A DNA stretch of 64,000 nt, taken from Rhodothermales bacterium (GTDB taxonomy: Bacteria > Bacteroidota > Rhodothermia > Rhodothermales > Bin80). Every line of letters starts with the position of its first letter. The first letter of the stretch is position 1. The notes beneath the pieces were generated by a model, which worked only from the letters and a program-made list of their open reading frames with translations, did no database searches and was not told the DNA's origin. The translations under genes were made by a program, and so were the position numbers. Below are positions 42,355-54,729 of this stretch, piece after piece. Location: NCBI GenBank assembly GCA_965215475.1, contig OZ244061.1:3112307-3176306 (forward strand). The letters run 5' to 3'.

Positions 42355-43032
42355 TCACCTCATTCTCATCAAGTGTCCGACCTGCATGGATGCGTGTCCT
42401 TCCATGGAGGTGGCTACCATGCGATACAGATAGACGCCGGCCGGGAGGGCAACCTGCTCCAATGTGATCACCTGCTCTCTGCCCGCCGCCATGCGCACCA
42501 TTGGATGGGTATACACCCGCCTGCCCGTCAGATCCAGGACGTCCAGTTTGATTTCGGCCGGCCACGGCAGATCAAAGAGCAGATTCGTAGACGTATGGAA
42601 GGGATTGGGATAGTTGGCATGCACGATCAGCTCCTGGGGATACTCCTTCTGCTCTTCGGTCGCCACCGGCGAGACCACTTCCAGGGTAAAGGTTAAGCTG
42701 GCTTGGGCCCCCTTGGCATCCGTTGCCTTGTAGGTCAGCTCCACCGGGGGTGTGATCTGCACGGGCGTGCCCGCGATCGTGCGCGTGGACGCATCAAACC
42801 TCAGTCCACTCGGAAGAGACAAGAGGTTGAGCGTATACTGAACCGGGTCGGTGCCCCCGGTCACCTCCGGCAAGACCAGTGGATCAATCCCTTGTCCACG
42901 ATCATAGGATTGATTCATGACCGTGGTGACAAACGTGATCTCGTAGATCTCCAGCGTAAATTCCATTGTGGAGATGGCCCCCGGGGCATCGGTCACCGTC
43001 CAGATAAAGGGTTGTGATCCCATAATATTCAC
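42355..43032 (-). pseudogene. 5'-truncated T9SS cargo fragment (two cadherin-like Ig repeats plus T9SS CTD)
   Basis: No signal peptide. DPLVLPEVTGGTDPVQYTL..STRTIAGTP and YPNPFHTSTNLLFDL..LDVLDLTGRRVY parallel the C-terminus of the S8 peptidase at 839-4105. It abuts an IS remnant. Confidence 0.6.
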
Positions 43033-43079: not shown

Positions 43080-44160
43080 AAAGCCTGGTTTAACGCCCTA
43101 AGCCTACCTTGTATGACCATCGCAAGGAGCGTCAGTGGCGCCATCTGGATCTGTTTACTTGGAGGTGTTTTATTCACGGCCGGGTTCCCCGCGTACAAAC
43201 CCCTAAGGATCCGAAGACGATCCGCTGAACGCAACCAAGAACCAAACCAAAGCGTCGGGAATTCTTCGGTGCGGAATGAACCAAGTCCATCGCAGTATGC
43301 ACCGTGCGGTGAAGCGCGGAGAGGCCCGCAGATCTCTGACAAACGTTCGTCCTATCCGTATGGATGAAAAGGCCCTCAAGCGCGGACATCGGCACGCAAC
43401 GGTGGGGAGTGATTCGGATCTTGGAATCGTTCTTGATGTTGGATAAGGGCGCACCAAAAAAGGCACGATCGACCTGTTGGAGGGCATTTTAGAGCGGATC
43501 GGGGATCAGGTATCGATCGATATGTGGCTGGCGTTCATTGGAGCGGTACAAGAAGTCTTCCCCGAGGCCCTCTTGATTCACGATCGGTTTCATTTAATCC
43601 AGTATCTCCATCAAGCCATCCATCAAGCACGAAGGCGAGAGGTCAAAGATCATCCAGAACTCAAAGGGAGCCAGTACGCCCTGTTGAAGAATGAAAAAAA
43701 TCGCACGCAAAAACAAGAAGAAATCTTCCAGGTGATCCAAGAAGCGAACCTCCATGTGAGTGTTGCTTGGCGATTCCGAGAAGACTTCAAAGCCATCTTT
43801 GAATGCACATCGTTCCAGGAAGCGAAAGAGTATCTCAACTTATGGCTTGACGAGGTGCAAGAGACGAGGATTCAGGAAGTCATCAACATTGCAGATCTGT
43901 TTAAGAACCACTTTGATGGAGTTTGCAACGCACTATGGAACCGACCGTCCAATGCAAAAGCAGAACGGATGAACGGAAATATTCAAGAAATCAAAACCAT
44001 TGGGAGAGGATACAGAAGATTTGAAAACTTCCGCGTTGCGATTCCAATGCGGAGGTTTAGACCTGCACCCACACAATTCGTGACAGAACCATCTGAGATA
44101 TTCGTGATTGAAATTAGAGTTTATCCGGTCTTGGGGTATTTGATTGGCCAAAAATAGAAG
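43080..44160 (+). mobile_element. decayed ISL3-family transposase remnant (5'-truncated, internal deletion, stop codon and frameshift)
   Basis: Hand translation gives ..YDHRKERQWRHLDLF.., ..GMNQVHRSMHRAVKRG..IRMDEKALKRGHRHAT..VLDVG*GRTKK.., then the ORF 43477-44157 with DRFHLIQYL. The C-terminus ..QCGGLDLHPHNS* is readable only after a frameshift. Confidence 0.7.
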
Positions 44161-44240: not shown

Positions 44241-44654
44241 ATGCGTAAGCCTCGTACCATCATCAGTATGATTGCCCTTGTGGGATTTGCCTCTCTGCTT
44301 CTGCTCAACTTCGGAGAACAGGTTGGTGGTTATATGCATTTTTCCGAAGCTGAAGCCTCAGGATCTCGTGCTCATGTGGTTGGTTACTGGACACAACCCG
44401 AGACGGCTCATTATGACTCTGAGACCAATGTCTTTTCATTCCACATGAAAGATGAAGAGGGAAGCGTTCGCAAAGTACACTATCATGATATAAAACCTGC
44501 AAGCTTTGAAAATGCAGAAAAGCTGGTCGTGGAAGGCCGTCTAAATGGAGAAATTTTTGAGGCCGAACATATCCTCATGAAATGCCCCTCGAAATATAGC
44601 GAAACGAACACTCTCCATCAGATTCCTCTCTCTTTGGAAGACCTCCAAAATTAA
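44241..44654 (+). CDS. CcmE-like heme chaperone, CxxxY variant, without neighbouring ccm genes
   Basis: N-terminal membrane anchor plus OB-fold pattern (..VHYHDIKPASFENAEKLVVEGRL.GEIFEAEHILMKCPSKY). The CPSKY motif replaces the HxxxY heme-binding motif. Confidence 0.65.
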   Translation: MRKPRTIISMIALVGFASLLLLNFGEQVGGYMHFSEAEASGSRAHVVGYWTQPETAHYDSETNVFSFHMKDEEGSVRKVHYHDIKPASFENAEKLVVEGRLNGEIFEAEHILMKCPSKYSETNTLHQIPLSLEDLQN

Positions 44655-44850: not shown

Positions 44851-44858
44851 TATATTTG
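44851..44858 (+). promoter_or_regulatory. TAnnTTTG (tatatttg) Bacteroidetes-type -7 promoter element upstream of the cluster
   Basis: An exact match to the consensus is seen in the sequence. No clear -33 TTTG was found. Confidence 0.25.
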
Positions 44859-45431
44859 CATTCGGTTAGACATTCTATATTGCTATCACCATTACTTATG
44901 AGAAGTTGCTCTCCATTATTATTGTCTAGAATGGCTTCCTCGGAATCAACCTGCAATTTAGAGGATTCAGAGATACGTTTACGAAAATCCCCCCCCCCTT
45001 TTTTTCGTAGCTCCCTAGTCCTATTTTTGATCCTTTTTGGAACTGGTTGTCAGGGAGTTACTGATTATTGTGACCTTGGAAAGCAAGATTTTTGGCTTGA
45101 ATCACTCTCGGATTGGCTAAATCTTGCCATACAATCCGGTGTCATCGGTTTTCTGATAACATTGATTGTTAGCTTGTTCTTGTACAGAGCACAACTTCAA
45201 AAAGTAAGGGAATGGGATGTTACCGCATCCTCACATCCTCGATTTCTGCCCCTTTGGGTGATCCCGGCTTTATTGATTGCCATTGCGCTTATGCCTGCAA
45301 TCCTATTCCTCCCCCTGGATTGCTCAATAAGGTTGGCACACATAATCGGTGCATGGGCAGGTTCGTTTATCGGTTGGGGAATCGTCTACACCTACTACTC
45401 TATCAGTGTCAAAAAAATACTTAAAAATTAA
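44856..45431 (+). CDS. polytopic membrane protein, first gene of the cluster (start probably ATG 44898 or 44931)
   Basis: Lipobox-like LILFGTGC followed by three hydrophobic helices. The stop lies 2 nt before the next gene. Confidence 0.5.
   Translation: MHSVRHSILLSPLLMRSCSPLLLSRMASSESTCNLEDSEIRLRKSPPPFFRSSLVLFLILFGTGCQGVTDYCDLGKQDFWLESLSDWLNLAIQSGVIGFLITLIVSLFLYRAQLQKVREWDVTASSHPRFLPLWVIPALLIAIALMPAILFLPLDCSIRLAHIIGAWAGSFIGWGIVYTYYSISVKKILKN
44989..45005 (+). repeat. C10 T7 homopolymer tract inside the coding frame (encodes SPPPFF)
   Basis: Counted directly: C at 44989-44998, T at 44999-45005. Confidence 0.9.
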
Positions 45432-45433
45432 TT

Positions 45434-48166
45434 ATGCCGAATTATTTTGTTGCGTGTGGTGGAACAGGGGCTCATGTAATGTTGGCCATGGTGCGTTTAC
45501 ATCTACTGGGATACCCTTTTGGGTTTTTCACCCCAAAAGACGGAAAAAATTTCCCTGATCTTTTTCTGATTGATCAAGATAGTGGATCACTTGTAACCGG
45601 CAAGGACAAGAACACTGCAATGGGGGAAATAAACCGCCTTCTTCGCATTCACCCCGGTCGATACGATCCACAAGTTGCATTTGGTGTTGGTCGCAAGTTG
45701 AAAATATCTCGTGTATCACCATTACCCATTGATGATGGAACATGGTTTGCCTCCCCTAACAACATACTGAAGAACAGATTTTCAGCATCAGACATTCTTG
45801 ATCTGATAACTACTGATCGCCAGCAAGATATTGATTATTCTGGCGGCATGATGGCATCCCCTGCCGTGGGATCCCTTCTTTTTCGCCTCAAAGACGATGA
45901 CAGACCCAATCCTGGGGCACCGAATAATGATAAAAATTATAACACATTACTGACTGATTCTGCAGGAAACCCTGTTGTCGTCTGCGGCTCAATTGTAGGA
46001 GGCACTGGTGCATCTGTTACCCCCACTCTTGCGCGTCAATTAAAAGATGGTCAGGCATCTGAGGTAATGGCAGTTTTGGTTCACAGGTGGTTTAACCTTG
46101 ATGCAGATCAAGGCGGAAAAAATTTTGATGACGCCGTCCGTAGAAATAAGGATATGGAAGACAATGCTGCCAGTGGACTTGTCTCTTCTGCTGAGGAACT
46201 GGCTAATCATTTACCTACAGTTTTAGTAGGAGCGACTAACAAAGGGATGAAAGATCGAAAATATGGTGGTGACTATCTAATGCCTATTGAAGATTCCTAC
46301 ATTCATGCTGTTGCAGCACTCGCTGGCATGACCCATTTACTCGGTGCACACCAGCCCAATGGGCTATATGGAGTATCCGCTTCTGTGGATCACGAGTTGA
46401 GTAATGATATTAAGATTGAAAATTCCACACTAGGCAATTTAATTGATCATGCTGAATTATTTTTAAGATTTTTGGACGCCTATTGCAAGGTCCTATCAAA
46501 CTTCAACGATTCATCCAATGCTGACATTATAGAGAAGTTTTTGAAAAAAACCAGTACTGGTTTCAGTGATCCTCCGCGACACAAGATACATGAATGGATC
46601 TATAACGAAGTTGGAAAGTCTGCCAAAAAGGTGGATTCGGTGTTCAATCAACTAAAAGAGTTCAAGGTTGCCTACGCCGAGTCTCTGGACTGGCTCAGAA
46701 GCCTAACTTCCCCTAGACCCATCCTTTCCCCCAAAGATGATATAGGATCAATCACTTTTCTTAATGAACGCTTAAAAGTAAAGCCACTGGATGGGTCTGC
46801 AGGAACTCGAACTCCTCCTATACCTATGGACAGGGAGGAATATATTGCTCTATCTCTGTATCACTGGCTTGCAGAATGGACTAAGGATTACTACGAGAAA
46901 AAATACAAGAATTTGTTTCCATCTCAAGGTAGTGTTAAAAAAGGATACTGGCCATCTATTGATGAGCCTACACTTCTTCCCGCTTTTAGCAATGCAGGCA
47001 CACTAGCAGGCCTTCATGGTGCAGGTAATATCGGGGCCGCGCTAAAAGCTATGTATGATCCTTCGAAAATTTCTCAAAATGGATGGCCACATTGCTTTGC
47101 TGCTAGTAAGCAATTCAAATTTTTAGTTAAGACTGGAGACAAAGTAGCGATTCGAAAACTTGAAATGTTGCTTGTAGGTCATGCACTTGGTTACCTGAAG
47201 CTGGAGCCTGTTAAATTTCTTGACAAAAACAAAAGGATCCCAGCATCTATTGATACCCTGCTTGAAGAAAAAGGAAATGGTTTGGCGAAATATCGGCTTC
47301 GTGACAAAAAAAACGATATTGTTTATGGATTTAGTTCACCAGACACATTACTATGCCCCACACCAAGAACTGATGATCCAAGAACTGATGATCCAAGAAC
47401 TAATGATGAATTGGCAAAATTATGGGACAAAATCACAGATTATACTGATCCTAATGCGGACTATAAAACATCACAAAAATGGGGGTATTTTGGAAACAAG
47501 GCTCGCAGCAGTGTTGCATTTTGGATTCAGCAGTTGACTAAATATTACCCCAACGAGCCTACATTAGATTGGGTCAAGCCTCTCAAAAATAATCCTCAGG
47601 ACGGACAACCATATGGAATTGTAGAATGGCTTCCATTGTCTGACAACGGGAACAATGAGATTAAACTCCCCTTGCCCCATGTTAAAAATACGCTCCGCCC
47701 TTCTCAAGATATAATTGGCGGGATACAATCTTTTGATGCCCATACACAGGATAAAAAAATACAGACCCGAATTCCAAGCTTCAATAAATGGAATAATTTT
47801 TCCCGCATAAAAGAAATATTTTTGCCCGGTTTAAAAAACCCGATTAGCTTGATCTGGAAAGAGCATCTGGATGGGTTACAAAAAAAGGGGGAGATTTTTG
47901 CATGGGGAAGCGATAAAAAAGATCATATTTGGGTCATGACGGATCTGGAATCAGATCTGATTGAAATCACGAACCTGCGTGTCATAGATATTGAGAAAAT
48001 TCGTATTCCCACTTGTATTCCGCTTAAGCAAAACCCTGTTCCTGGATCTAATACCAAAAAGGGTAGCATAATATTTCCCGATTTGCCCCTCCTTCCAGAA
48101 TATACAAGTTTAGCGATGGTACCTCCTGGCAATAAAAGAAGCGGGAAAAGCAATGATCAATCATAA
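45434..48166 (+). CDS. 910-aa protein with N-terminal tubulin/FtsZ-superfamily-like GTPase loops and a large uncharacterised C-terminal region
   Basis: FVACGGTGAHV (T1-like GxGxxG, aa 5-15), SGGMMASPAVGSLLF (T3-like, aa 136-150) and CGSIVGGTGASVTP (T4-like GGGTGSG, aa 184-197; nt 45998-46015). Confidence 0.5.
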   Translation: MPNYFVACGGTGAHVMLAMVRLHLLGYPFGFFTPKDGKNFPDLFLIDQDSGSLVTGKDKNTAMGEINRLLRIHPGRYDPQVAFGVGRKLKISRVSPLPIDDGTWFASPNNILKNRFSASDILDLITTDRQQDIDYSGGMMASPAVGSLLFRLKDDDRPNPGAPNNDKNYNTLLTDSAGNPVVVCGSIVGGTGASVTPTLARQLKDGQASEVMAVLVHRWFNLDADQGGKNFDDAVRRNKDMEDNAASGLVSSAEELANHLPTVLVGATNKGMKDRKYGGDYLMPIEDSYIHAVAALAGMTHLLGAHQPNGLYGVSASVDHELSNDIKIENSTLGNLIDHAELFLRFLDAYCKVLSNFNDSSNADIIEKFLKKTSTGFSDPPRHKIHEWIYNEVGKSAKKVDSVFNQLKEFKVAYAESLDWLRSLTSPRPILSPKDDIGSITFLNERLKVKPLDGSAGTRTPPIPMDREEYIALSLYHWLAEWTKDYYEKKYKNLFPSQGSVKKGYWPSIDEPTLLPAFSNAGTLAGLHGAGNIGAALKAMYDPSKISQNGWPHCFAASKQFKFLVKTGDKVAIRKLEMLLVGHALGYLKLEPVKFLDKNKRIPASIDTLLEEKGNGLAKYRLRDKKNDIVYGFSSPDTLLCPTPRTDDPRTDDPRTNDELAKLWDKITDYTDPNADYKTSQKWGYFGNKARSSVAFWIQQLTKYYPNEPTLDWVKPLKNNPQDGQPYGIVEWLPLSDNGNNEIKLPLPHVKNTLRPSQDIIGGIQSFDAHTQDKKIQTRIPSFNKWNNFSRIKEIFLPGLKNPISLIWKEHLDGLQKKGEIFAWGSDKKDHIWVMTDLESDLIEITNLRVIDIEKIRIPTCIPLKQNPVPGSNTKKGSIIFPDLPLLPEYTSLAMVPPGNKRSGKSNDQS
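47363..47407 (+). repeat. 3 x 15-bp in-frame tandem repeat (ccaagaactgatgat x2, ccaagaactaatgat) encoding PRTDD-PRTDD-PRTND
   Basis: Read directly from the sequence. Confidence 0.95.
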
Positions 48167-50351
48167 TTGGAATGGTTTATCAGACTATAAATGGGATAAC
48201 AATACTACGGTAGAATGGGACGTGTATTTAATGGGCCGCCCTCAATCAAAGCCTGAAAAGATCAAAGTAACAATTGATAAGAATATCAATCCCGAAGCAG
48301 CTCATTGGATGATTTGGCCAAATTTCAAGTCTCCCAAAAATGACCCGACGCCATGGAGAGCCTATTACGTATATGAAGATTCATCACGACCATCCCTGCA
48401 AGCTCATGTCTTGACCCAAAAGAATGATGGAAGTATTTCTAGACCCAAAACACGCCCCGATGGCATTTCTGGTCCCAGTCGCTCTGTGGAATGTAAAAAT
48501 GGAAAACACACCGGCGGTGCTCCAGTGGCCTTGTGTGCTTATGATACTGATCTTGAAAAATATGTCGGCCTTTATAAAATAGAAATAGTGAATGAGTTTG
48601 ACGACCATGACAATCCAACTCCTTGGAAGCTTGCCTTGGATTTTGGAACTTCACATACGGTAATGGCCCAAGAAGGTCTCAATAATGGAAATGCTGAAAT
48701 AATTTCCCTCAGTAGTGAATTAACTCCTGAGAGCCCAGAGATGTCTTTGCATATCAGTCAGAATTGGCCTGAGCAAAGAGATGTGGAGCGTAAAAAATCT
48801 TTGGAGGTATGGAGACCAACTTATGTAGAGAAGAAGAATTTGAACCCAAGCGCATCCCAAATGCTGCGTTCCGATCTTTGGTCGTCGAAGAAGAAGGAAT
48901 TCGGCACATCCAACAATATGCCGGAAGGATTGGGAGCCCATGACCCATTATGCACTTCCTTCCTGGAATTTACACCGTGAATCTTTAGGTGATGTTATAT
49001 CTGGCTTTAAATGGGAAATGAATGATGCACAGTTTGCAGGGCATGAGCGATGGCTCCAAAAGAGATATCTTGCAATGGTCATTGAACTATTCTTGGCCGA
49101 AGTGATCATGGAAAAACGAGCGTTTCCGCACAAAGTCCAGTTTACATTCACGTATCCCTTACGAGGCAACAAGGATAACTACGAAGAACATGATTAAAGA
49201 AGGTGCTTCCGGAATGTGCAAAAAATCTTGGTTTCGATTTCAATCCAGACGGAAACAATTTATCTTTACTTAGTGAATCCCATGCTGCGGCTGGAATCGT
49301 AGGTACAGGGAATCCTTGTGAAGTAAAACTTGTAGCCGACCTAGGCGGGGGAACCCTTGACATCTTTATTTCCACGTCAGACACGTCAGATAGAGAAGAT
49401 AGTGATAGTAGATTCAAGACAATAGCCGATAGTGCTAAAATTGGGGCGAATCATCTACTCAAAATTCTCGCGAAGTATGGATCTAAATATCTTCCAAACG
49501 ATTCTGCATGGAGGGACAGCTATGAAGAAGCTTATATCAACTTATGTGTGTGGATGCGTTTGAAAGGATCTCGTCAATTATTCGATCCTAGTGGAATAAA
49601 TTCAGAGATTCCTCCACTAAAACTTAATGGCTTCCAAGATGGACCATCTGGGAGCAAGGCAAGAATTCTCATCAGTAAGTATTTCTACCTAATTACTGAT
49701 TTTTTAGCTCGAAATCTTGTCGCGTATGTGACGAAACATGTTCTTAAAGAGTTAACAGATCAAGAGCTTAAGCATGATCTAAAACTATTTCTACAACTCC
49801 AGGGTAACGGATGGCGTTTATGGTATCAGAGTGACGATTACAATCAAATTCATCAGCAAATACTTAAACTTATCAAAGAACGAGCTAACCTCTTATGGAA
49901 CGAGCGATCTCTGGATAGTCATGATTTTTCTATTCAAGAAGATTTATGGGATGATGAAAACAGAAATTTAGGCCCTGACCCTAAGACTGGCCCGATTTGT
50001 AACGCTGTAGGTAAAGGCTCTCTAACAGACGGTACAACAAACTATCACAAATTCCCCTTATCCAAAGTAAAGATTTTTCATCCTGAAGAGGAAACAATCG
50101 AAAGAAATTGGTTTGATCTTCTACCATTTGAGAAGTTGCCACAGAAGTCAACTCCTAGAATCAAAGAATTTGATCCAGGATTATGGTTAGGCCGTACATC
50201 AAAAGAAATCAGTGCGATTGAGGCTCAACGTATGGCTAAAATTAATGCTGAAATAGAAAGTCCAACTTGGGGTATAAATACGATGGATGCACCTATTGGG
50301 GCGGCTATTTGGGAGCAGATGCTTAAATCGGCATATTTGAGGATGGATTGA
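48153..50351 (+). pseudogene. Hsp70/actin-fold (ASKHA) ATPase with a ~155-aa N-terminal extension, split over three ORFs by two frameshifts
   Basis: LALDFGTSHTV (phosphate-1, nt 48639-) in ORF 48153-48980. VQFTFTYPL (the 'vitvPa' strand) in ORF 48940-49197. LSESHAAAG and ADLGGGTLDIFIS (phosphate-2, nt 49338-) in ORF 49203-50351. Frames run 0 to 1 to 0. Confidence 0.6.
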
Positions 50352-50606
50352 AACATCCATTGAAGCTTTCAAGGAATGATTATGATTGATCTGATGGTTG
50401 ATGTCTCTGGCACTCCTCACAAATCAAATCATAACTGATGCTCTCTCTGATTGCTACCAACCCAATAAACAACCTGCATGATGGTGATGATCCATATTCC
50501 ATTGCGCGCTCAATTTCACCCTGATCTGTTCGTTGTATGACACGAGCCTTGAATTCTACCATTTTATTTCTGATGCTCAAGGTTTAAGTTGACCACTATC
50601 TGTGAT

Positions 50607-51011
50607 ATGAAGCTGAGGACGAAATTCTTGAAATTGATGGAAGTAGCACGAACTACTCTGCAGGGGGAATGGGCCAAAAAAGGGCTTGAATTATTGGTTC
50701 GTGTAGTTCTCGTTGCAACTCGTCGGACCGATGGAAATCCAGCATCATTAGATCTACTCATTCTTCGTGATTTGAAAAAGATCCTTGAGGATTTTCCCAG
50801 TATGCCTTGCCCACCAGCAGGATCGCCTACTCTCTTTCCACGAGAAGATTCAAAAACTAAACTCCTTATTTCCCCTAGATGGATACTCCGATCACTATAC
50901 AAGATTCGTATTCAATTAGGTGGACCAGTTCCAACGCATATCAGAGTTTTACGTGATGCTCTGGAATCACTGCAATGCATCTATGTAACCTCACAAAATG
51001 AAGCGAAATGA
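50607..51011 (+). CDS. hypothetical 134-aa protein (ATG at 50607)
   Basis: ATGA overlap with the downstream gene (51008-51011). No motif recognised. Confidence 0.4.
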   Translation: MKLRTKFLKLMEVARTTLQGEWAKKGLELLVRVVLVATRRTDGNPASLDLLILRDLKKILEDFPSMPCPPAGSPTLFPREDSKTKLLISPRWILRSLYKIRIQLGGPVPTHIRVLRDALESLQCIYVTSQNEAK

Positions 51012-52420
51012 TACTCATGCACAGATACAGATTCGTTTATTTAATCCTAATACTTGCGATTGTTATCTCACAACCTAGCAATGGGCAGTCAAATGATCGA
51101 CCTGTCGAAAGTTATGCTCAAGAGGTTGCCGTTCAATCTGTTTGGGAGAATGACTTTTATGGTCAAATAGCACCATTGGAATCTCAGGATTTTTATCTGC
51201 TTTGGGATGTGTCGATCCCTATGGGCGGGTATATCCACGAAAGTAATCGTAGCCTTTCCGTTGCACTTGCCAAGATACAGGAGTTGTTAAAAAATGGAAT
51301 TTTGAATTCTGACTATGGAAGAACAACTATTCAATGTATGGGAATCAAAGACACCATTGATCCTTTGGAGAAATGCGATGACAATCAACTTAGAGACAGG
51401 GATTTTTTTCTTGGATTAGATTCTGACGTTGGGCTGGGTATTGAGCTTATGATTGACAGTCTTAAGACCGGAAAAATGATGGGGGCAGTTCTCATCACTG
51501 ATTTGATGGCAACTACCGAATATGGCACTGGCGCAACAGCATTATTACCGTATTTTAATGACGAGGAGCTTATGGCATATTTTACAGATGGTAAAATATA
51601 CATGGGGATCTTGGGGATTGCTCCCGATTATTGGGGACTCAAAAAAGGACCTTGTGCGACAAAATCAGGGCCATTGGGATGTTGGTTCAATGAAGGACTC
51701 CAAGAGTGGGTACCTCTCAACCAAACGGTGAAGAGACCGATATATGTTCTCGTTATGGGGCGTCATTTGGAGGGAGAGGATAAACATTCTAATTCCGTGA
51801 ATACGATTATTGAGGAGATATACGAATCTTTGCGTGATTTGGGTTATGAAGTAAAATTGGAACGCGTGACGCAAGGGGCGTTAGGCCTTCAGACTCAATT
51901 AAAATGGCACAATCCTTCCACAGAAGGCAGAGGACGCCCACCCATCAATCTTGACTCAGACAATGGATTTTCTTGTAATAATAGAAATGTCCACACGTTA
52001 TCCAGCGAATTTGACGATCGTCAAATTCGTGTTGATGAGATAGATGATACGGGCATAATTAATGGTCTTGAAACATTTGACCAAGTACGAAAAGAGGATG
52101 AACATGGAATAAAATTGGATCTTAACTGCGAGAATGTATTGAATTTGATCCGAAAAGAGAGACGTTGTAGAGGAGATGAAGATCCTGATAGACCTTGCAA
52201 CTGCACGATTGACTCTGTATTTAAACCAGATCTGAGCAGGATCACTGCCAAAGTCAGCTATCAATCCGAGAATGGAATGGGTTGGGGCAAATGGTCATCT
52301 ATACAACATAGTGATAGTTTGACACTTTATTTAGCAGATTTTATTGATGGATTGCACCCTGACCATTATAACGCAATGATTTCCCCTGCTCCTCCTCTTG
52401 ATTGTAGCAAAGCGAGGTAA
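51008..52420 (+). CDS. secreted or periplasmic Cys-rich protein, possible degenerate vWA fold
   Basis: Signal peptide MHRYRFVYLILILAIVISQPSNGQS. FYLLWDVSIPMGG (DxSxP in place of the MIDAS DxSxS) and AVLITDLMAT (in place of the vvllTDG strand). Eight Cys in the mature part. Confidence 0.45.
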   Translation: MILMHRYRFVYLILILAIVISQPSNGQSNDRPVESYAQEVAVQSVWENDFYGQIAPLESQDFYLLWDVSIPMGGYIHESNRSLSVALAKIQELLKNGILNSDYGRTTIQCMGIKDTIDPLEKCDDNQLRDRDFFLGLDSDVGLGIELMIDSLKTGKMMGAVLITDLMATTEYGTGATALLPYFNDEELMAYFTDGKIYMGILGIAPDYWGLKKGPCATKSGPLGCWFNEGLQEWVPLNQTVKRPIYVLVMGRHLEGEDKHSNSVNTIIEEIYESLRDLGYEVKLERVTQGALGLQTQLKWHNPSTEGRGRPPINLDSDNGFSCNNRNVHTLSSEFDDRQIRVDEIDDTGIINGLETFDQVRKEDEHGIKLDLNCENVLNLIRKERRCRGDEDPDRPCNCTIDSVFKPDLSRITAKVSYQSENGMGWGKWSSIQHSDSLTLYLADFIDGLHPDHYNAMISPAPPLDCSKAR

Positions 52421-52438
52421 TGATTTTTTCGAAACCTC

Positions 52439-53962
52439 TTGCAAAACCCTCTTCATTATGTGTTACTTGTGTTATGTATTGCTGTCCTAGTCTTACTACT
52501 TCTTCGTTATATGTTACTTGTGTTATGTATTGCTGTCCTGGTCTTGGTAATCATATGTCAATATCTAAACTTTAATAAATCAAAAACATCTTTAACTGAT
52601 ATAGATGATTTATTAAAGAAGCTTTTAGAGCGCTCCGACTGGAAGGGGAATTGGGAAATACTAGATCGTCTCGTTGTCCCTCATTTAGATGATATTCAAA
52701 GATTCTCCAATGCCGCATTAGTTACTGGTATAGGTGGCACGATGGGGATATTCTTCCTTGAAGCCTTGTATTTAATACCCAGTGATGTATCCAATTTAGA
52801 CATTACCATCATTGTTCAAGGTGCAATCCCAGCTCTACTTTCTAGTTTGTGCGGAATATTTTTTCATCTCTTCATCCTATCAAAACATTTATCAGAGGCT
52901 CAAGAAAGCGTAACTGACGTGGAGATGAGATGGTTAGAGTCGGAAAATGTGCCATTGCGTGATGGACCAATCGTGAATGTTGACATCAGCGGTGCTGTTG
53001 AAAAAATTTTCCAAGAAATTTCAGCTACTCAGAAAGGTGTATCGGACTCTACGCAAGAAATTAGCAGGCTTCTACAAGAAAACAAAGAGATTTCTCTGAT
53101 TCAGCGATCCTCTGCCAAAGAGATAAAAGAAGGTGTTCAAATCTTTGCAGAACATCTTAAATCTCTCCCCGATGATCTTCGAAAATCACTAGATTTGACT
53201 GAGATTCAACGTTTATTAAAGGAGCAGCAATCAGATGTGCTTGCAATTTTATCTGATGTTAAAGGAGCGACTTCACAAATCGTTAATGCTCAGGATCAAT
53301 TCACAGATGTAGGGACTGAGTTACTGGAGTCGATTAAACAAAATTTGATAAACCATCAAACATCGACCCAGAAAATTTGTGACAATGTTCAAACGCTTAC
53401 CGAGACAATAGAAACTCTTCCCGGCGATATTCGAAGCTCACTGGAAATAAGTGAATTCTTTGATAAAGCTGCAAGAAGCCATCTTGACGAATTGTATAAG
53501 GCTTTTAAAGATCATCAATCTGAATTAAAAAGAGCAATTATTGATAATCAAGAGCAACAGAAACGATGGTTAGCTAATAACATTCACAAAGTTGTTGCAG
53601 ATGTTATTGATGATTTACAGAAACAAATTAATGAAACTATTAAAGATCCGCTTGACACGATGAGCAAAAAACTCAGTGCTGCTACGAAAGAAATGCCAGA
53701 TGCTGCAAATAAGTTCGGGACGGACCTCATTGAATCTGCGAATACACTCGCCACGATTCCAAAAGAACTTGAAAAGGTGTCAGAAGGTGTCAATGAAGTG
53801 GTTCGTGCAACTGCGGACGCTGCCTTGAAGCCTCTATCTGACGAAATGAAAGATTTTGTAGGCACTATTCAGGATACTCATCAGAGACTTGAAAAAACTA
53901 TTCATGGACTAGTACACCTGATTGAAAATCTGATTAGAGGAATGGAAATTAGAAGTAAATGA
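52439..53962 (+). CDS. MotA/ExbB/TolQ-like membrane protein with ~340-aa coiled-coil tail (ZorA-like architecture); start may be ATG 52511
   Basis: TM1, then ALVTGIGGTMGIFFLEAL (compare LGLLGTVxGI) and IIVQGAIPALLSSLCGIFFHLFIL. After that comes a long heptad-rich, Q/E/K/L-rich tail to the C-terminus. Confidence 0.55.
   Translation: MQNPLHYVLLVLCIAVLVLLLLRYMLLVLCIAVLVLVIICQYLNFNKSKTSLTDIDDLLKKLLERSDWKGNWEILDRLVVPHLDDIQRFSNAALVTGIGGTMGIFFLEALYLIPSDVSNLDITIIVQGAIPALLSSLCGIFFHLFILSKHLSEAQESVTDVEMRWLESENVPLRDGPIVNVDISGAVEKIFQEISATQKGVSDSTQEISRLLQENKEISLIQRSSAKEIKEGVQIFAEHLKSLPDDLRKSLDLTEIQRLLKEQQSDVLAILSDVKGATSQIVNAQDQFTDVGTELLESIKQNLINHQTSTQKICDNVQTLTETIETLPGDIRSSLEISEFFDKAARSHLDELYKAFKDHQSELKRAIIDNQEQQKRWLANNIHKVVADVIDDLQKQINETIKDPLDTMSKKLSAATKEMPDAANKFGTDLIESANTLATIPKELEKVSEGVNEVVRATADAALKPLSDEMKDFVGTIQDTHQRLEKTIHGLVHLIENLIRGMEIRSK
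52457..52546 (+). repeat. ~39-bp direct repeat at 51-bp offset (52457-52495 / 52508-52546, 2 mismatches) duplicating YV/MLLVLCIAVLVL
   Basis: Aligned by hand. Confidence 0.85.
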
Positions 53963-54729
53963 AAAGACGCTCTGAGACACAGGTTACCGTATGGCCTGCA
54001 ATTACGGATTTGATGATTGCGATTGTCGTCATTGCAGTTTTAGCGGGGATCATTGGATATAGTAAATATACTGAGATAAAATTAACGGCAGGTCCCTCTA
54101 AAATTCGTAATGATATACTGGAGGAGATTGACAGTTTACTGAAGAATTCGAATCTGAGCGTTGAAGTACTTAAAGATGAAAGCGTTTTACGTCTATCTGA
54201 CGGTATCGTTAACTTTGAACTCGGAGAAATTTCGCCCATTGAAGATCACAAGAAAAATGTGGCGATATTGGCTGAGGTGTTAGCTCAGGTGGTTCCGTGT
54301 TACATTTCATGCCCATCTCAAACGATCACACATGTGTCCACTGACAGCCATAGCAGAGATAAATCCTATTGTCAAACAATCTCCTGTAACGAAACCAGCA
54401 ACTCACAGTGGCTCATTGGGACAGTACTCATTGAAGGACATACGGACACTATCCGTGTAATAGAAGGGAGAAATCGATTCAAGGATAATCTTGAGTTATC
54501 CTCAATGCGGGCTGCCGAAGTCTATCGGATGATTACTGCTTGGGAACCCTCAATCGGAGAAATGAAGAATTCACAAGAGGTTCCTATCTTCAGTACAAGT
54601 GGTTATGGCTCGATGCGGCTTGCAGAACCAGATATGCCCTCCAGTGACCAGAATAGACGAATTGACTTACGATTTCTTTTTGAACGACGCCAAGAAAGAA
54701 ATCCAACAGAGGAATCAAGTTTGCCATGA
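53959..54729 (+). CDS. MotB/OmpA-like peptidoglycan-anchored stator subunit (ZorB-like)
   Basis: N-terminal TM with conserved Asp (VWPAITDLMIAIVVI, compare MotB YADFMTAMM). C-terminal OmpA_C blocks IEGHTDT..NLELSSMRAAEV..GYGS..NRRIDLRF. ATGA overlap with the upstream gene. Confidence 0.8.
   Translation: MKRRSETQVTVWPAITDLMIAIVVIAVLAGIIGYSKYTEIKLTAGPSKIRNDILEEIDSLLKNSNLSVEVLKDESVLRLSDGIVNFELGEISPIEDHKKNVAILAEVLAQVVPCYISCPSQTITHVSTDSHSRDKSYCQTISCNETSNSQWLIGTVLIEGHTDTIRVIEGRNRFKDNLELSSMRAAEVYRMITAWEPSIGEMKNSQEVPIFSTSGYGSMRLAEPDMPSSDQNRRIDLRFLFERRQERNPTEESSLP

Follow-up and report, generated by a model that had tools for sequence, protein, structure and literature searches.

A divergent ZorA/ZorB-like gene pair, probably the membrane motor module of a rare six-gene cassette with a giant tubulin- and Hsp70-like protein

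We analysed a window of 64,000 nucleotides (nt) from a Rhodothermales bacterium (contig OZ244061.1, positions 3,112,307 to 3,176,306 of the forward strand; all coordinates below are those of the window) and focused on two adjacent plus-strand genes, here called A (52511–53962) and B (53959–54729). A encodes a divergent MotA/ExbB-superfamily protein of 483 amino acids (aa) with a ZorA-like architecture: a first transmembrane (TM) segment, a loop, TM2 with the motif GIGGT77M, TM3 with the motif LLSS112L, and a helical tail. B encodes a 256-aa protein that combines a MotB-type TM helix with a peptidoglycan-binding domain of the ZorB type I kind (GHTD...NLELSSMRAA...NRRIDLR). The two genes close a tightly packed series of plus-strand genes that extends from 44856 to 54729. 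They probably supply the membrane motor of a cassette of six genes, both rare and conserved, which we regard as a new type of Zorya-like system. The label "ZorA/ZorB-like", proposed for the pair in an original prediction made from the DNA alone, is a fair one.

The longest possible open reading frame (ORF) of A (52439–53962, plus strand) opens with TTG and encodes 507 aa, the length given in the original prediction. By comparison with its homologues, the gene proper is 52511–53962, with its ATG at 52511, because relatives begin there and the database copy of the protein (P0001) is 483 aa long. The predicted gene and its three TM segments were retained, and only the length was revised. The first 72 nt of the longer frame derive from a tandem duplication of the A start codon and TM1 region (52450–52545, plus strand). 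It consists of two 45-nt direct copies (52450–52494 and 52501–52545) that are 93% identical and spaced 51 nt apart, and the upstream copy carries GTG at the place of the downstream ATG. Tandem Repeats Finder did not detect this two-copy duplication, which was recovered by a separate repeat search. Translation from the upstream TTG or GTG would add a fourth hydrophobic helix to A and invert its topology.

Hydropathy analysis of the 483-aa form placed the three TM segments at approximately residues 1–24, 68–89, and 96–124, with a short cytoplasmic loop of ~45 aa between TM1 and TM2. The two stretches that had been read as MotA/ExbB-like helices, GIGGTMGIFF and AIPALLSSLCGIFF, turned out to be the best-conserved parts of the A family. 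In an alignment of 51 relatives, G73, T77, and G115 were invariant and S112 was nearly so. In ZorAB, the aspartate of the B subunit is faced by polar residues in TM2 and TM3 of ZorA, Thr147 and Ser184 (PMC11946911), to which T77 (TM2) and S112 (TM3) of A correspond in kind. An AlphaFold2 (AF2) model of the N-terminal 145 residues, with a predicted local distance difference test score (pLDDT) of 64–93, was compared with the PDB using Foldseek. The top 28 matches were all ExbB, TolQ, PomA, or MotA chains, with probabilities of up to 0.97. A transitive link came from the family itself: ten of the 51 relatives scanned, all distant members, matched PF01618 (MotA_ExbB), and one of them, P0066, scored 23.6 bits against a gathering score of 22.9 bits, over residues 76–141, which are exactly TM2–TM3. 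Taken together, the Foldseek matches, the link through P0066, and the conservation of T77, S112, G73, and G115 place A in the MotA/ExbB superfamily as a very divergent member.

How divergent A is became evident from the sequence searches. A profile of 160 N-terminal positions, searched against 1.84 billion representative proteins, matched 61 of them, all at or near the N-terminus and mostly in proteins of 400–800 aa. The membrane domain had no match in Pfam, NCBIfam, PADLOC, or PDB sequences, whether used as a single sequence or as a profile, and it lies outside every ZorA hidden Markov model (HMM) family. The similarity of the window protein to MotA/ExbB is below the detection limits of both HMM searches and hhalign. 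Matches of the full-length A profile to 8vvi_F (E = 5e-4) and 8qyd_A (E = 1.4e-3) were not used, as they were mostly driven by the tail.

The heptad-like tail of ~340 residues reported in the original prediction was also recovered. It comprises ~338 aa, is rich in L, I, E, K, D, S, and Q, and is predicted to be all-helical (residues 160–482, AF2 secondary structure). It is strongly amphipathic, its hydrophobic residues recurring with a period of 3.5–3.7 residues (spectral power 166, versus 55 ± 13 in shuffled sequences). Prolines, including four invariant ones, break up the tail, whose C-terminal part is strongly conserved. The predicted architecture of A, with a long alpha-helical tail on the cytoplasmic side after three TM helices, is that of ZorA, and its length of 483 aa falls within the range of the PADLOC ZorA2 models (420–590). 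ZorA models dominated the PADLOC matches of the family tails, with E-values down to 1e-12, and BLASTP of A against a genuine ZorA found similarity in the tail only (pairwise E = 1e-5). The strongest sequence matches of the tail were apolipoproteins. Weak tail matches to Apolipoprotein, ApoLp-III, Baculo_PEP_C, ATG17_like, and DUF1664 were common to the A family and genuine ZorA.

B is coupled to A as originally described, its ATG start overlapping the A stop codon in ATGA. It has a single TM segment with an aspartate, Asp17, in the motif WPAITDLM, in agreement with the predicted MotB-type helix. Asp17 was invariant across seven aligned B proteins, and the wider motif MRRxRTxxTxWPAxxDLMT, including its Asp, was conserved in all 54 B-like genes found (54/54). 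This TM motif resembles AYADFMTAMM of E. coli MotB. The periplasmic part had been described as a complete OmpA-like peptidoglycan-binding domain. A peptidoglycan-binding domain of the ZorB type was upheld by the PADLOC model ZorB1 (PDLC00610), which matched residues 14–248 of 256 with E = 2.3e-43. Pfam OmpA gave only 21.6 bits, under its cut-off of 27.2, but a genuine ZorB also stayed below it (23.6 bits). B also matched the PDB chain 8vvn_B, a MotB-related protein (E = 1.8e-11). More than 278 homologues of B were found by database search, mostly ~290 aa long and 40–50% identical.

B is 43–44% identical to one of these homologues, P0124, over 98% of its length, and the P0124 locus is a textbook type I Zorya, with ZorA (PF28082, ZorA-like_t1), ZorB, ZorC (EH_Signature), and ZorD (SNF2 and Mrr_cat). 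B thus shows both marks of a type I ZorB, a full-length profile match and a match to the ZorB of a verified ZorABCD locus. Conservation with canonical ZorB covers the whole periplasmic domain, including GHTD, N-x2-L-S-x2-R-A, NRRIDLR, and Cys residues. The TM sequence is of a different type, WPAITDLM in B versus SISDVMAAL in canonical ZorB. Because the periplasmic domain is canonical ZorB-like but the TM region is not, B resembles, at the sequence level, a chimera that joins a cassette-specific TM helix to a ZorB-type peptidoglycan-binding domain.

In E. coli ZorB, the disulfides are essential. B retains three of the four conserved Cys; in place of the fourth, at about residue 195, it has Trp (TAWEP, versus TACEP in all aligned relatives including genuine ZorB), and an extra Cys occurs at residue 118. 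E. coli ZorB (EcZorB) has two disulfide bridges, and its peptidoglycan-binding residues are Y151, N152, L155, and R159 (PMC11946911). In the corresponding motif of B, D-N-L-E-L-S-S-M-R-A, the N, L, and R are kept and Tyr is changed to Asp, the residues being matched by motif and not by an alignment with EcZorB.

The ZorB-type domain is restricted to a Rhodothermales subclade that includes the window. Other B proteins of the family carry a coiled coil in the periplasm and a C-terminal domain with no assignment, and the MotB-type TM helix with its Asp is kept even where the periplasmic domain changes. The window has no further B-like gene after B, so that the A–B pair ends the cluster as stated in the original prediction. 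Elsewhere, a second B-like paralogue directly follows B in L003 (12493–13179), L014 (19303–19977), L004 (12336–12626), L041 (8912–9796), and L044 (9752–10381). These second copies share the TM motif and have no ZorB-type peptidoglycan-binding domain. A 269-aa B-like protein with a peptidoglycan-binding domain (P0106) is encoded elsewhere on the contig to which the database assigns the proteins of the window. The genome that carries cassette L003 also has, ~90 kb from the cassette, a canonical type I Zorya (L064, 7186–14899; ZorA, ZorB, ZorC with EH_Signature, and ZorD with SNF2 and Mrr_cat), from which the ZorB-type domain may plausibly have been acquired. When plasmids were searched with B using tblastn for annotated ZorAB, one weak, unannotated match was found.

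Homologues of A, of B, and of the 910-aa protein encoded upstream were followed to their contigs, and the cassette was found at 50 loci among 185,579 species genomes, all of them metagenome-assembled genomes, from Rhodothermales, Acidobacteriota (Vicinamibacteria, Thermoanaerobaculia, and Bryobacterales), Gemmatimonadota (Longimicrobiales), and Latescibacterota. The gene order is shared by ~45 loci: a small lipoprotein-like gene, a giant ORF of 1576–1801 aa, in most cases a small protein, then a protein of ~450–490 aa that is exported or a lipoprotein, and finally A and B. A–B is strictly linked to the giant gene, downstream of it, across four phyla. In one Rhodothermales genome the cassette occurs three times, on contig OZ241874.1 (L016, L017, and L041), with two copies nearly adjacent, and L017 contains two A–B pairs ~13 kb apart.

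The giant protein has two halves. In the window, its first fragment (45434–48166, plus strand, 910 aa) contains a tubulin/FtsZ-fold N-terminal domain and middle alpha/beta domains, with the motifs CGGTGAHV and VGGTGASV, and corresponds to the N-terminal part of the single ORF of 1576–1801 aa in relatives. The N-terminal domain was modelled by AF2 with a pLDDT of 80 and a predicted TM-score (pTM) of 0.81, and the top 50 PDB matches of this model in Foldseek were all tubulin, FtsZ, or CetZ, with probabilities of up to 1.00. The domain is thus predicted to have a tubulin/FtsZ fold with a G-box-like loop. Pfam Tubulin gave weak matches in nine of 21 giant homologues (best E = 2.7e-4), all under the gathering score, and Tubulin_2, which we take to be the FtsZl1 family model, matched one of the 21 (E = 0.033). 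The C-terminal half (fragments 2–4, 48144–50351, plus strand, in three frame segments) carries the motifs DFGTSHT and DLGGGTLD, from which it appears to be Hsp70/actin-like (ASKHA). A profile of this half, searched against the PDB, retrieved Hsp70/DnaK nucleotide-binding domains only, at non-significant E-values (0.5–0.9). The original prediction had coupled the motor to NTPases encoded upstream. Strict gene linkage in ~45 loci supports such a link, and the "NTPases" are one giant gene, which is frameshifted in the window.

Three smaller genes complete the cassette. Gene 1 (44856–45431, plus strand) encodes a small membrane lipoprotein-like protein with the lipobox LFGTGC followed by hydrophobic segments. 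Its true start is probably downstream of the TTG. Its place in the cassette is taken by orthologues in L003 (48% identity, E = 6e-51) and L001 (E = 2e-10), and the window protein had no Pfam or PADLOC match. Gene 3 (50589–51011, plus strand) encodes a small conserved protein of 140 aa with orthologues in L004, L014, and L003 (E = 4e-38 to 2e-26), and no family match was found in Pfam or in PADLOC scans of the window and L005. Gene 4 (51008–52420, plus strand) encodes an exported or periplasmic protein of 470 aa with a signal or anchor sequence, aligned across seven loci. Conserved Cys residues occur in it, as do the motifs D-x-S-x-P-M-x-G and TDL, and orthologues carry lipoboxes. It had no match in Pfam, PADLOC, NCBIfam, or the PDB profile search. 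A von Willebrand factor A (vWA)-like look of gene 4 (DxSxP, TDL) was set aside as an impression only, as there was no vWA match and the PDB profile search was empty. PADLOC matched neither the giant nor the periplasmic proteins in the loci tested. No ZorC, ZorD, ZorE, ZorF, or ZorG was found in the cassette, and the other cassette proteins scanned had no PADLOC match in the window, L005, or L007.

Defence and mobile-element genes recur beside the cassette. The neighbours include AIPR, DUF4420, Z1, HATPase_c, and Vsr in L001, type ISP and Eco57I-like restriction-modification in L004, SocA_Panacea and ISL3 in L003, an integrase, a relaxase, ArdC, and GmrSD in L005, NERD and DEAD helicases in L007, and Fic and transposases in L013. 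When the 123 ORFs located up to 4.4 kb from the cassette at 34 loci were scanned with PADLOC, strong matches were obtained to PDC-S01 (five ORFs), PDC-M28B (two), SspC, ZacA, MzaE, ShosA, BrxC, and AbiEii. The five ORFs matching PDC-S01 (E down to 2.5e-138) do not form one BLAST cluster, and clustering of the neighbouring ORFs revealed no additional conserved flanking gene. In the window, the cassette forms a low-GC island (0.39–0.42, versus ~0.47 elsewhere), with no tRNA at its borders.

We then compared the cassette with known systems. With type I ZorAB (Hu et al. 2024, PMC11946911; Mariano et al. 2025, PMC11890865), it shares a three-TM A subunit with a long cytoplasmic helical tail, a B subunit with a single TM and an essential-type Asp, adjacent and overlapping A and B genes, a defence-island setting, and a weak apolipoprotein-like signature of the tail; the window B also shares the ZorB-type peptidoglycan-binding domain and conserved Cys residues. 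It differs from Zorya in that ZorC/D, ZorE, and ZorF/G are replaced by the giant tubulin/Hsp70-like, periplasmic, lipoprotein, and small proteins, and in that A–B come last in the operon, not first. Cassette A differs further in having no ZorA HMM match over its membrane part, a TM1–TM2 domain of ~45 residues, and four invariant tail prolines, and cassette B in its TM sequence type and in a peptidoglycan-binding domain that is missing in most members. Membership of Zorya types I–III was rejected, as the type-specific partner genes are absent and A is outside all ZorA models.

Among the 5:2 motors MotAB, PomAB, ExbBD, and TolQR, the predicted fold of the A N-terminus matches the A subunits only. 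The cassette shares with MotAB/ExbBD-type motors the GxGGT motif in TM2 of A and Ser/Thr in TM3, and its B motif A-D-x-M-T is like ADFMT of E. coli MotB. It differs from them in the long cytoplasmic tail of A and in lacking partner genes of the flagellar, TonB, or TolA-Pal kinds. A third comparison is with the FtsZl1-vWA-OmpA operons, which have been proposed as membrane remodelling systems (Makarova & Koonin 2010, PMC2875224). They too encode a divergent FtsZ/tubulin-like protein, an exported or periplasmic protein, and an OmpA-family protein, and are patchily distributed across phyla. FtsZl1 proteins are ~1000 aa long, with a coiled coil, a helical C-terminal domain, and no Hsp70-like half, and a MotA-like partner has not been described for these operons (PMC2875224). 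In the cassette, we detected no genes for vWA, protein kinase, or P-loop GTPase proteins. FtsZl1 operon membership was rejected, as the architecture differs and gene 4 has no vWA match. In the literature, we found no relevant report of a Zorya-like or MotAB-like system with a tubulin or Hsp70 partner.

By analogy with ZorAB, MotAB, and ExbBD, A would form a ring, probably a pentamer, around a dimer of B in the inner membrane. The proton path would consist of Asp17 of B together with Thr77 (TM2) and Ser112 (TM3) of A. In the subclade of the window, the ZorB-type periplasmic domain of B would bind peptidoglycan. A perturbation of the envelope, such as phage entry, would then let protons flow and turn A with its ~340-residue cytoplasmic tail, whose conserved C-terminal part may signal to the giant tubulin/FtsZ GTPase-like and Hsp70/actin ATPase-like protein. 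The giant protein would stand in for the ZorC/ZorD nuclease module, and the periplasmic protein of gene 4 and the lipoprotein of gene 1 would act as partners on the envelope side. More tentatively, the cassette can be taken as an undescribed Zorya-like class of immunity system, in which a proton-driven 5:2 motor controls a giant tubulin/FtsZ-fold GTPase and Hsp70/actin-fold ATPase, not a nuclease, and in which the sensor domain of B is exchangeable, with ZorB-type peptidoglycan binding in Rhodothermales and other domains elsewhere.

Several results weigh against a Zorya-like motor. PF01618 was unmatched at E ≤ 1 by the window A and its 13 closest relatives, and the A N-terminal profile retrieved no stator from PDB sequences. 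With hhalign, a 64-sequence N-terminal alignment of A placed the right helices against E. coli TolQ, ExbB, and MotA, with TM3 correct, at scores that were not significant, the target profiles being too thin; against a single genuine ZorA, TM2–TM3 were aligned with E = 0.021 and a probability of 2%. The E-values of the Foldseek matches were weak (0.03–0.5), with TM-scores that were low owing to the tail, and the model was of a monomer, with tail pLDDT below 50. The PADLOC ZorA matches of A were confined to the tail (residues 184–503, best E = 1.8e-7), far under the curated cut-offs, and may be partly compositional; NCBIfam antiphage_ZorA_3 likewise matched the tail only, with 16.8 bits against a cut-off of 250. 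Most B proteins of the family have no recognisable peptidoglycan-binding domain, and Pfam and PADLOC scans found no nuclease or other recognisable effector domain in the cassette. The PADLOC census of neighbours, made with no matched control, supports the defence reading, short of proof.

The main rival explanation lies outside immunity: the cassette would be machinery of the envelope or cytoskeleton, serving membrane remodelling, secretion, or cell-surface dynamics, with a MotAB-like energiser that drives a tubulin/actin-fold scaffold. Makarova and Koonin made a similar proposal for the FtsZl1-vWA-OmpA operons. The tubulin/FtsZ fold and Hsp70/actin-like motifs of the giant protein, the presence of a periplasmic protein and a lipoprotein, and the lack of any nuclease or toxin domain in the Pfam and PADLOC scans would all suit such a machine, and FtsZl1 operons, in which a divergent FtsZ-like protein is encoded alongside vWA and OmpA-family proteins, provide a precedent (PMC2875224). 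However, a distribution as patchy as 50 loci among 185,579 species genomes of unrelated phyla, the recurrence of defence or mobile-element neighbours, pseudogenisation of the giant gene in five of ~45 loci, and a low-GC island beside a transposase fragment fit it poorly, and the single weak Tubulin_2 match among 21 homologues does not tie the giant protein to FtsZl1. We regard this explanation as unlikely.

Another explanation, which we consider improbable, denies A a channel: A would be a three-TM, coiled-coil or apolipoprotein-like membrane protein beside an OmpA/MotB-family anchor, and the pair would be no rotary motor. The unmatched PF01618, the stator-free profile search, the non-significant hhalign results, and the apolipoprotein matches of the tail all point this way. 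The original prediction had expected a PF01618 match and had named its absence as grounds for refutation. The window protein indeed has none, yet this result is non-diagnostic, because genuine ZorA of a ZorABCD locus is likewise unmatched and shows the same apolipoprotein-like tail matches. Against a non-channel protein stand the top 28 Foldseek matches, exclusively A subunits of 5:2 motors, the gathering score attained by P0066 on TM2–TM3, the polar Thr77 and Ser112, which are (nearly) invariant and lie where TM2 and TM3 would be expected to carry them, and a partner, B, that keeps its MotB-type Asp helix despite changes of its periplasmic domain. That the pair is a remnant of an ordinary type I Zorya, lying beside unrelated genes by chance, is highly improbable: the type I ZorB kind of periplasmic domain and the canonical Zorya I in a related genome would fit, but the synteny of A–B with the giant gene in ~45 loci of four phyla already contradicts it, the B TM is cassette-specific (WPAITDLM versus SISDVMAAL), A is only distantly related to canonical ZorA, and PADLOC scans found no ZorC or ZorD.

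In the window copy of the cassette, A and B are both full length. The giant gene is split over frames 3, 1, 2, and 1, as collinear pieces in tblastn with the intact proteins of L001 and L014. Fragments 2–4 lie at 48144–48926 (frame 1), 48889–49269 (frame 2), and 49200–50351 (frame 1), and the frame junctions at approximately 48144–48148, 48905–48926, and 49170–49200, the first being one extra A in a run of A (~48145). The gene is intact in ~40 loci, and intact cassettes include those of L014 (OZ244857.1) and L003/L015 (OZ241742.1); it is pseudogenised in five of ~45; besides the window, it is broken in L026, L056, L059, and L063. The frame changes, the duplicated start of A, and the Cys-to-Trp change in B suggest that the window copy is decaying or inactive. 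The frame changes in the giant gene may instead be a sequencing error.

Just upstream of the cassette, the window contains a truncated ORF (43477–44157) that resembles an ISL3-family transposase by eye (DRFHLIQYL); ISL3 transposases flank the cassette in L003 and L013. Between this fragment and the cassette, a 137-aa CcmE-domain protein is encoded (44241–44654; Pfam CcmE, E = 7e-14), which stands alone, with no other cytochrome c maturation genes nearby. Further upstream, a 225-aa ORF on the minus strand (42355–43032) has a C-terminus that by eye resembles a type IX secretion sorting domain (NYPNPF...), which fits an origin in Bacteroidota/Rhodothermota. The region from 42 to 43.5 kb has many overlapping ORFs and a higher GC content (0.515).

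To our knowledge, Zorya is the only MotAB-type rotary motor used for signalling and not for mechanical work on the flagellum or envelope. The known outputs of Zorya are nuclease or helicase modules. In the cassette described here, the A–B family is hard-wired to a giant protein of tubulin and Hsp70 folds across four phyla, and B provides a natural example of a domain swap, in which a cassette-specific TM helix is joined to a ZorB-type peptidoglycan-binding domain. The finding also suggests that the FtsZl1-vWA-OmpA operons described in 2010 deserve re-examination as possible motor-coupled or defence systems. If the motor-module reading is true, the cassette would offer a concrete handle on what the tail transmits, and a second, independent family of long-tailed motors would make "motor plus tail" a general modular signalling device.

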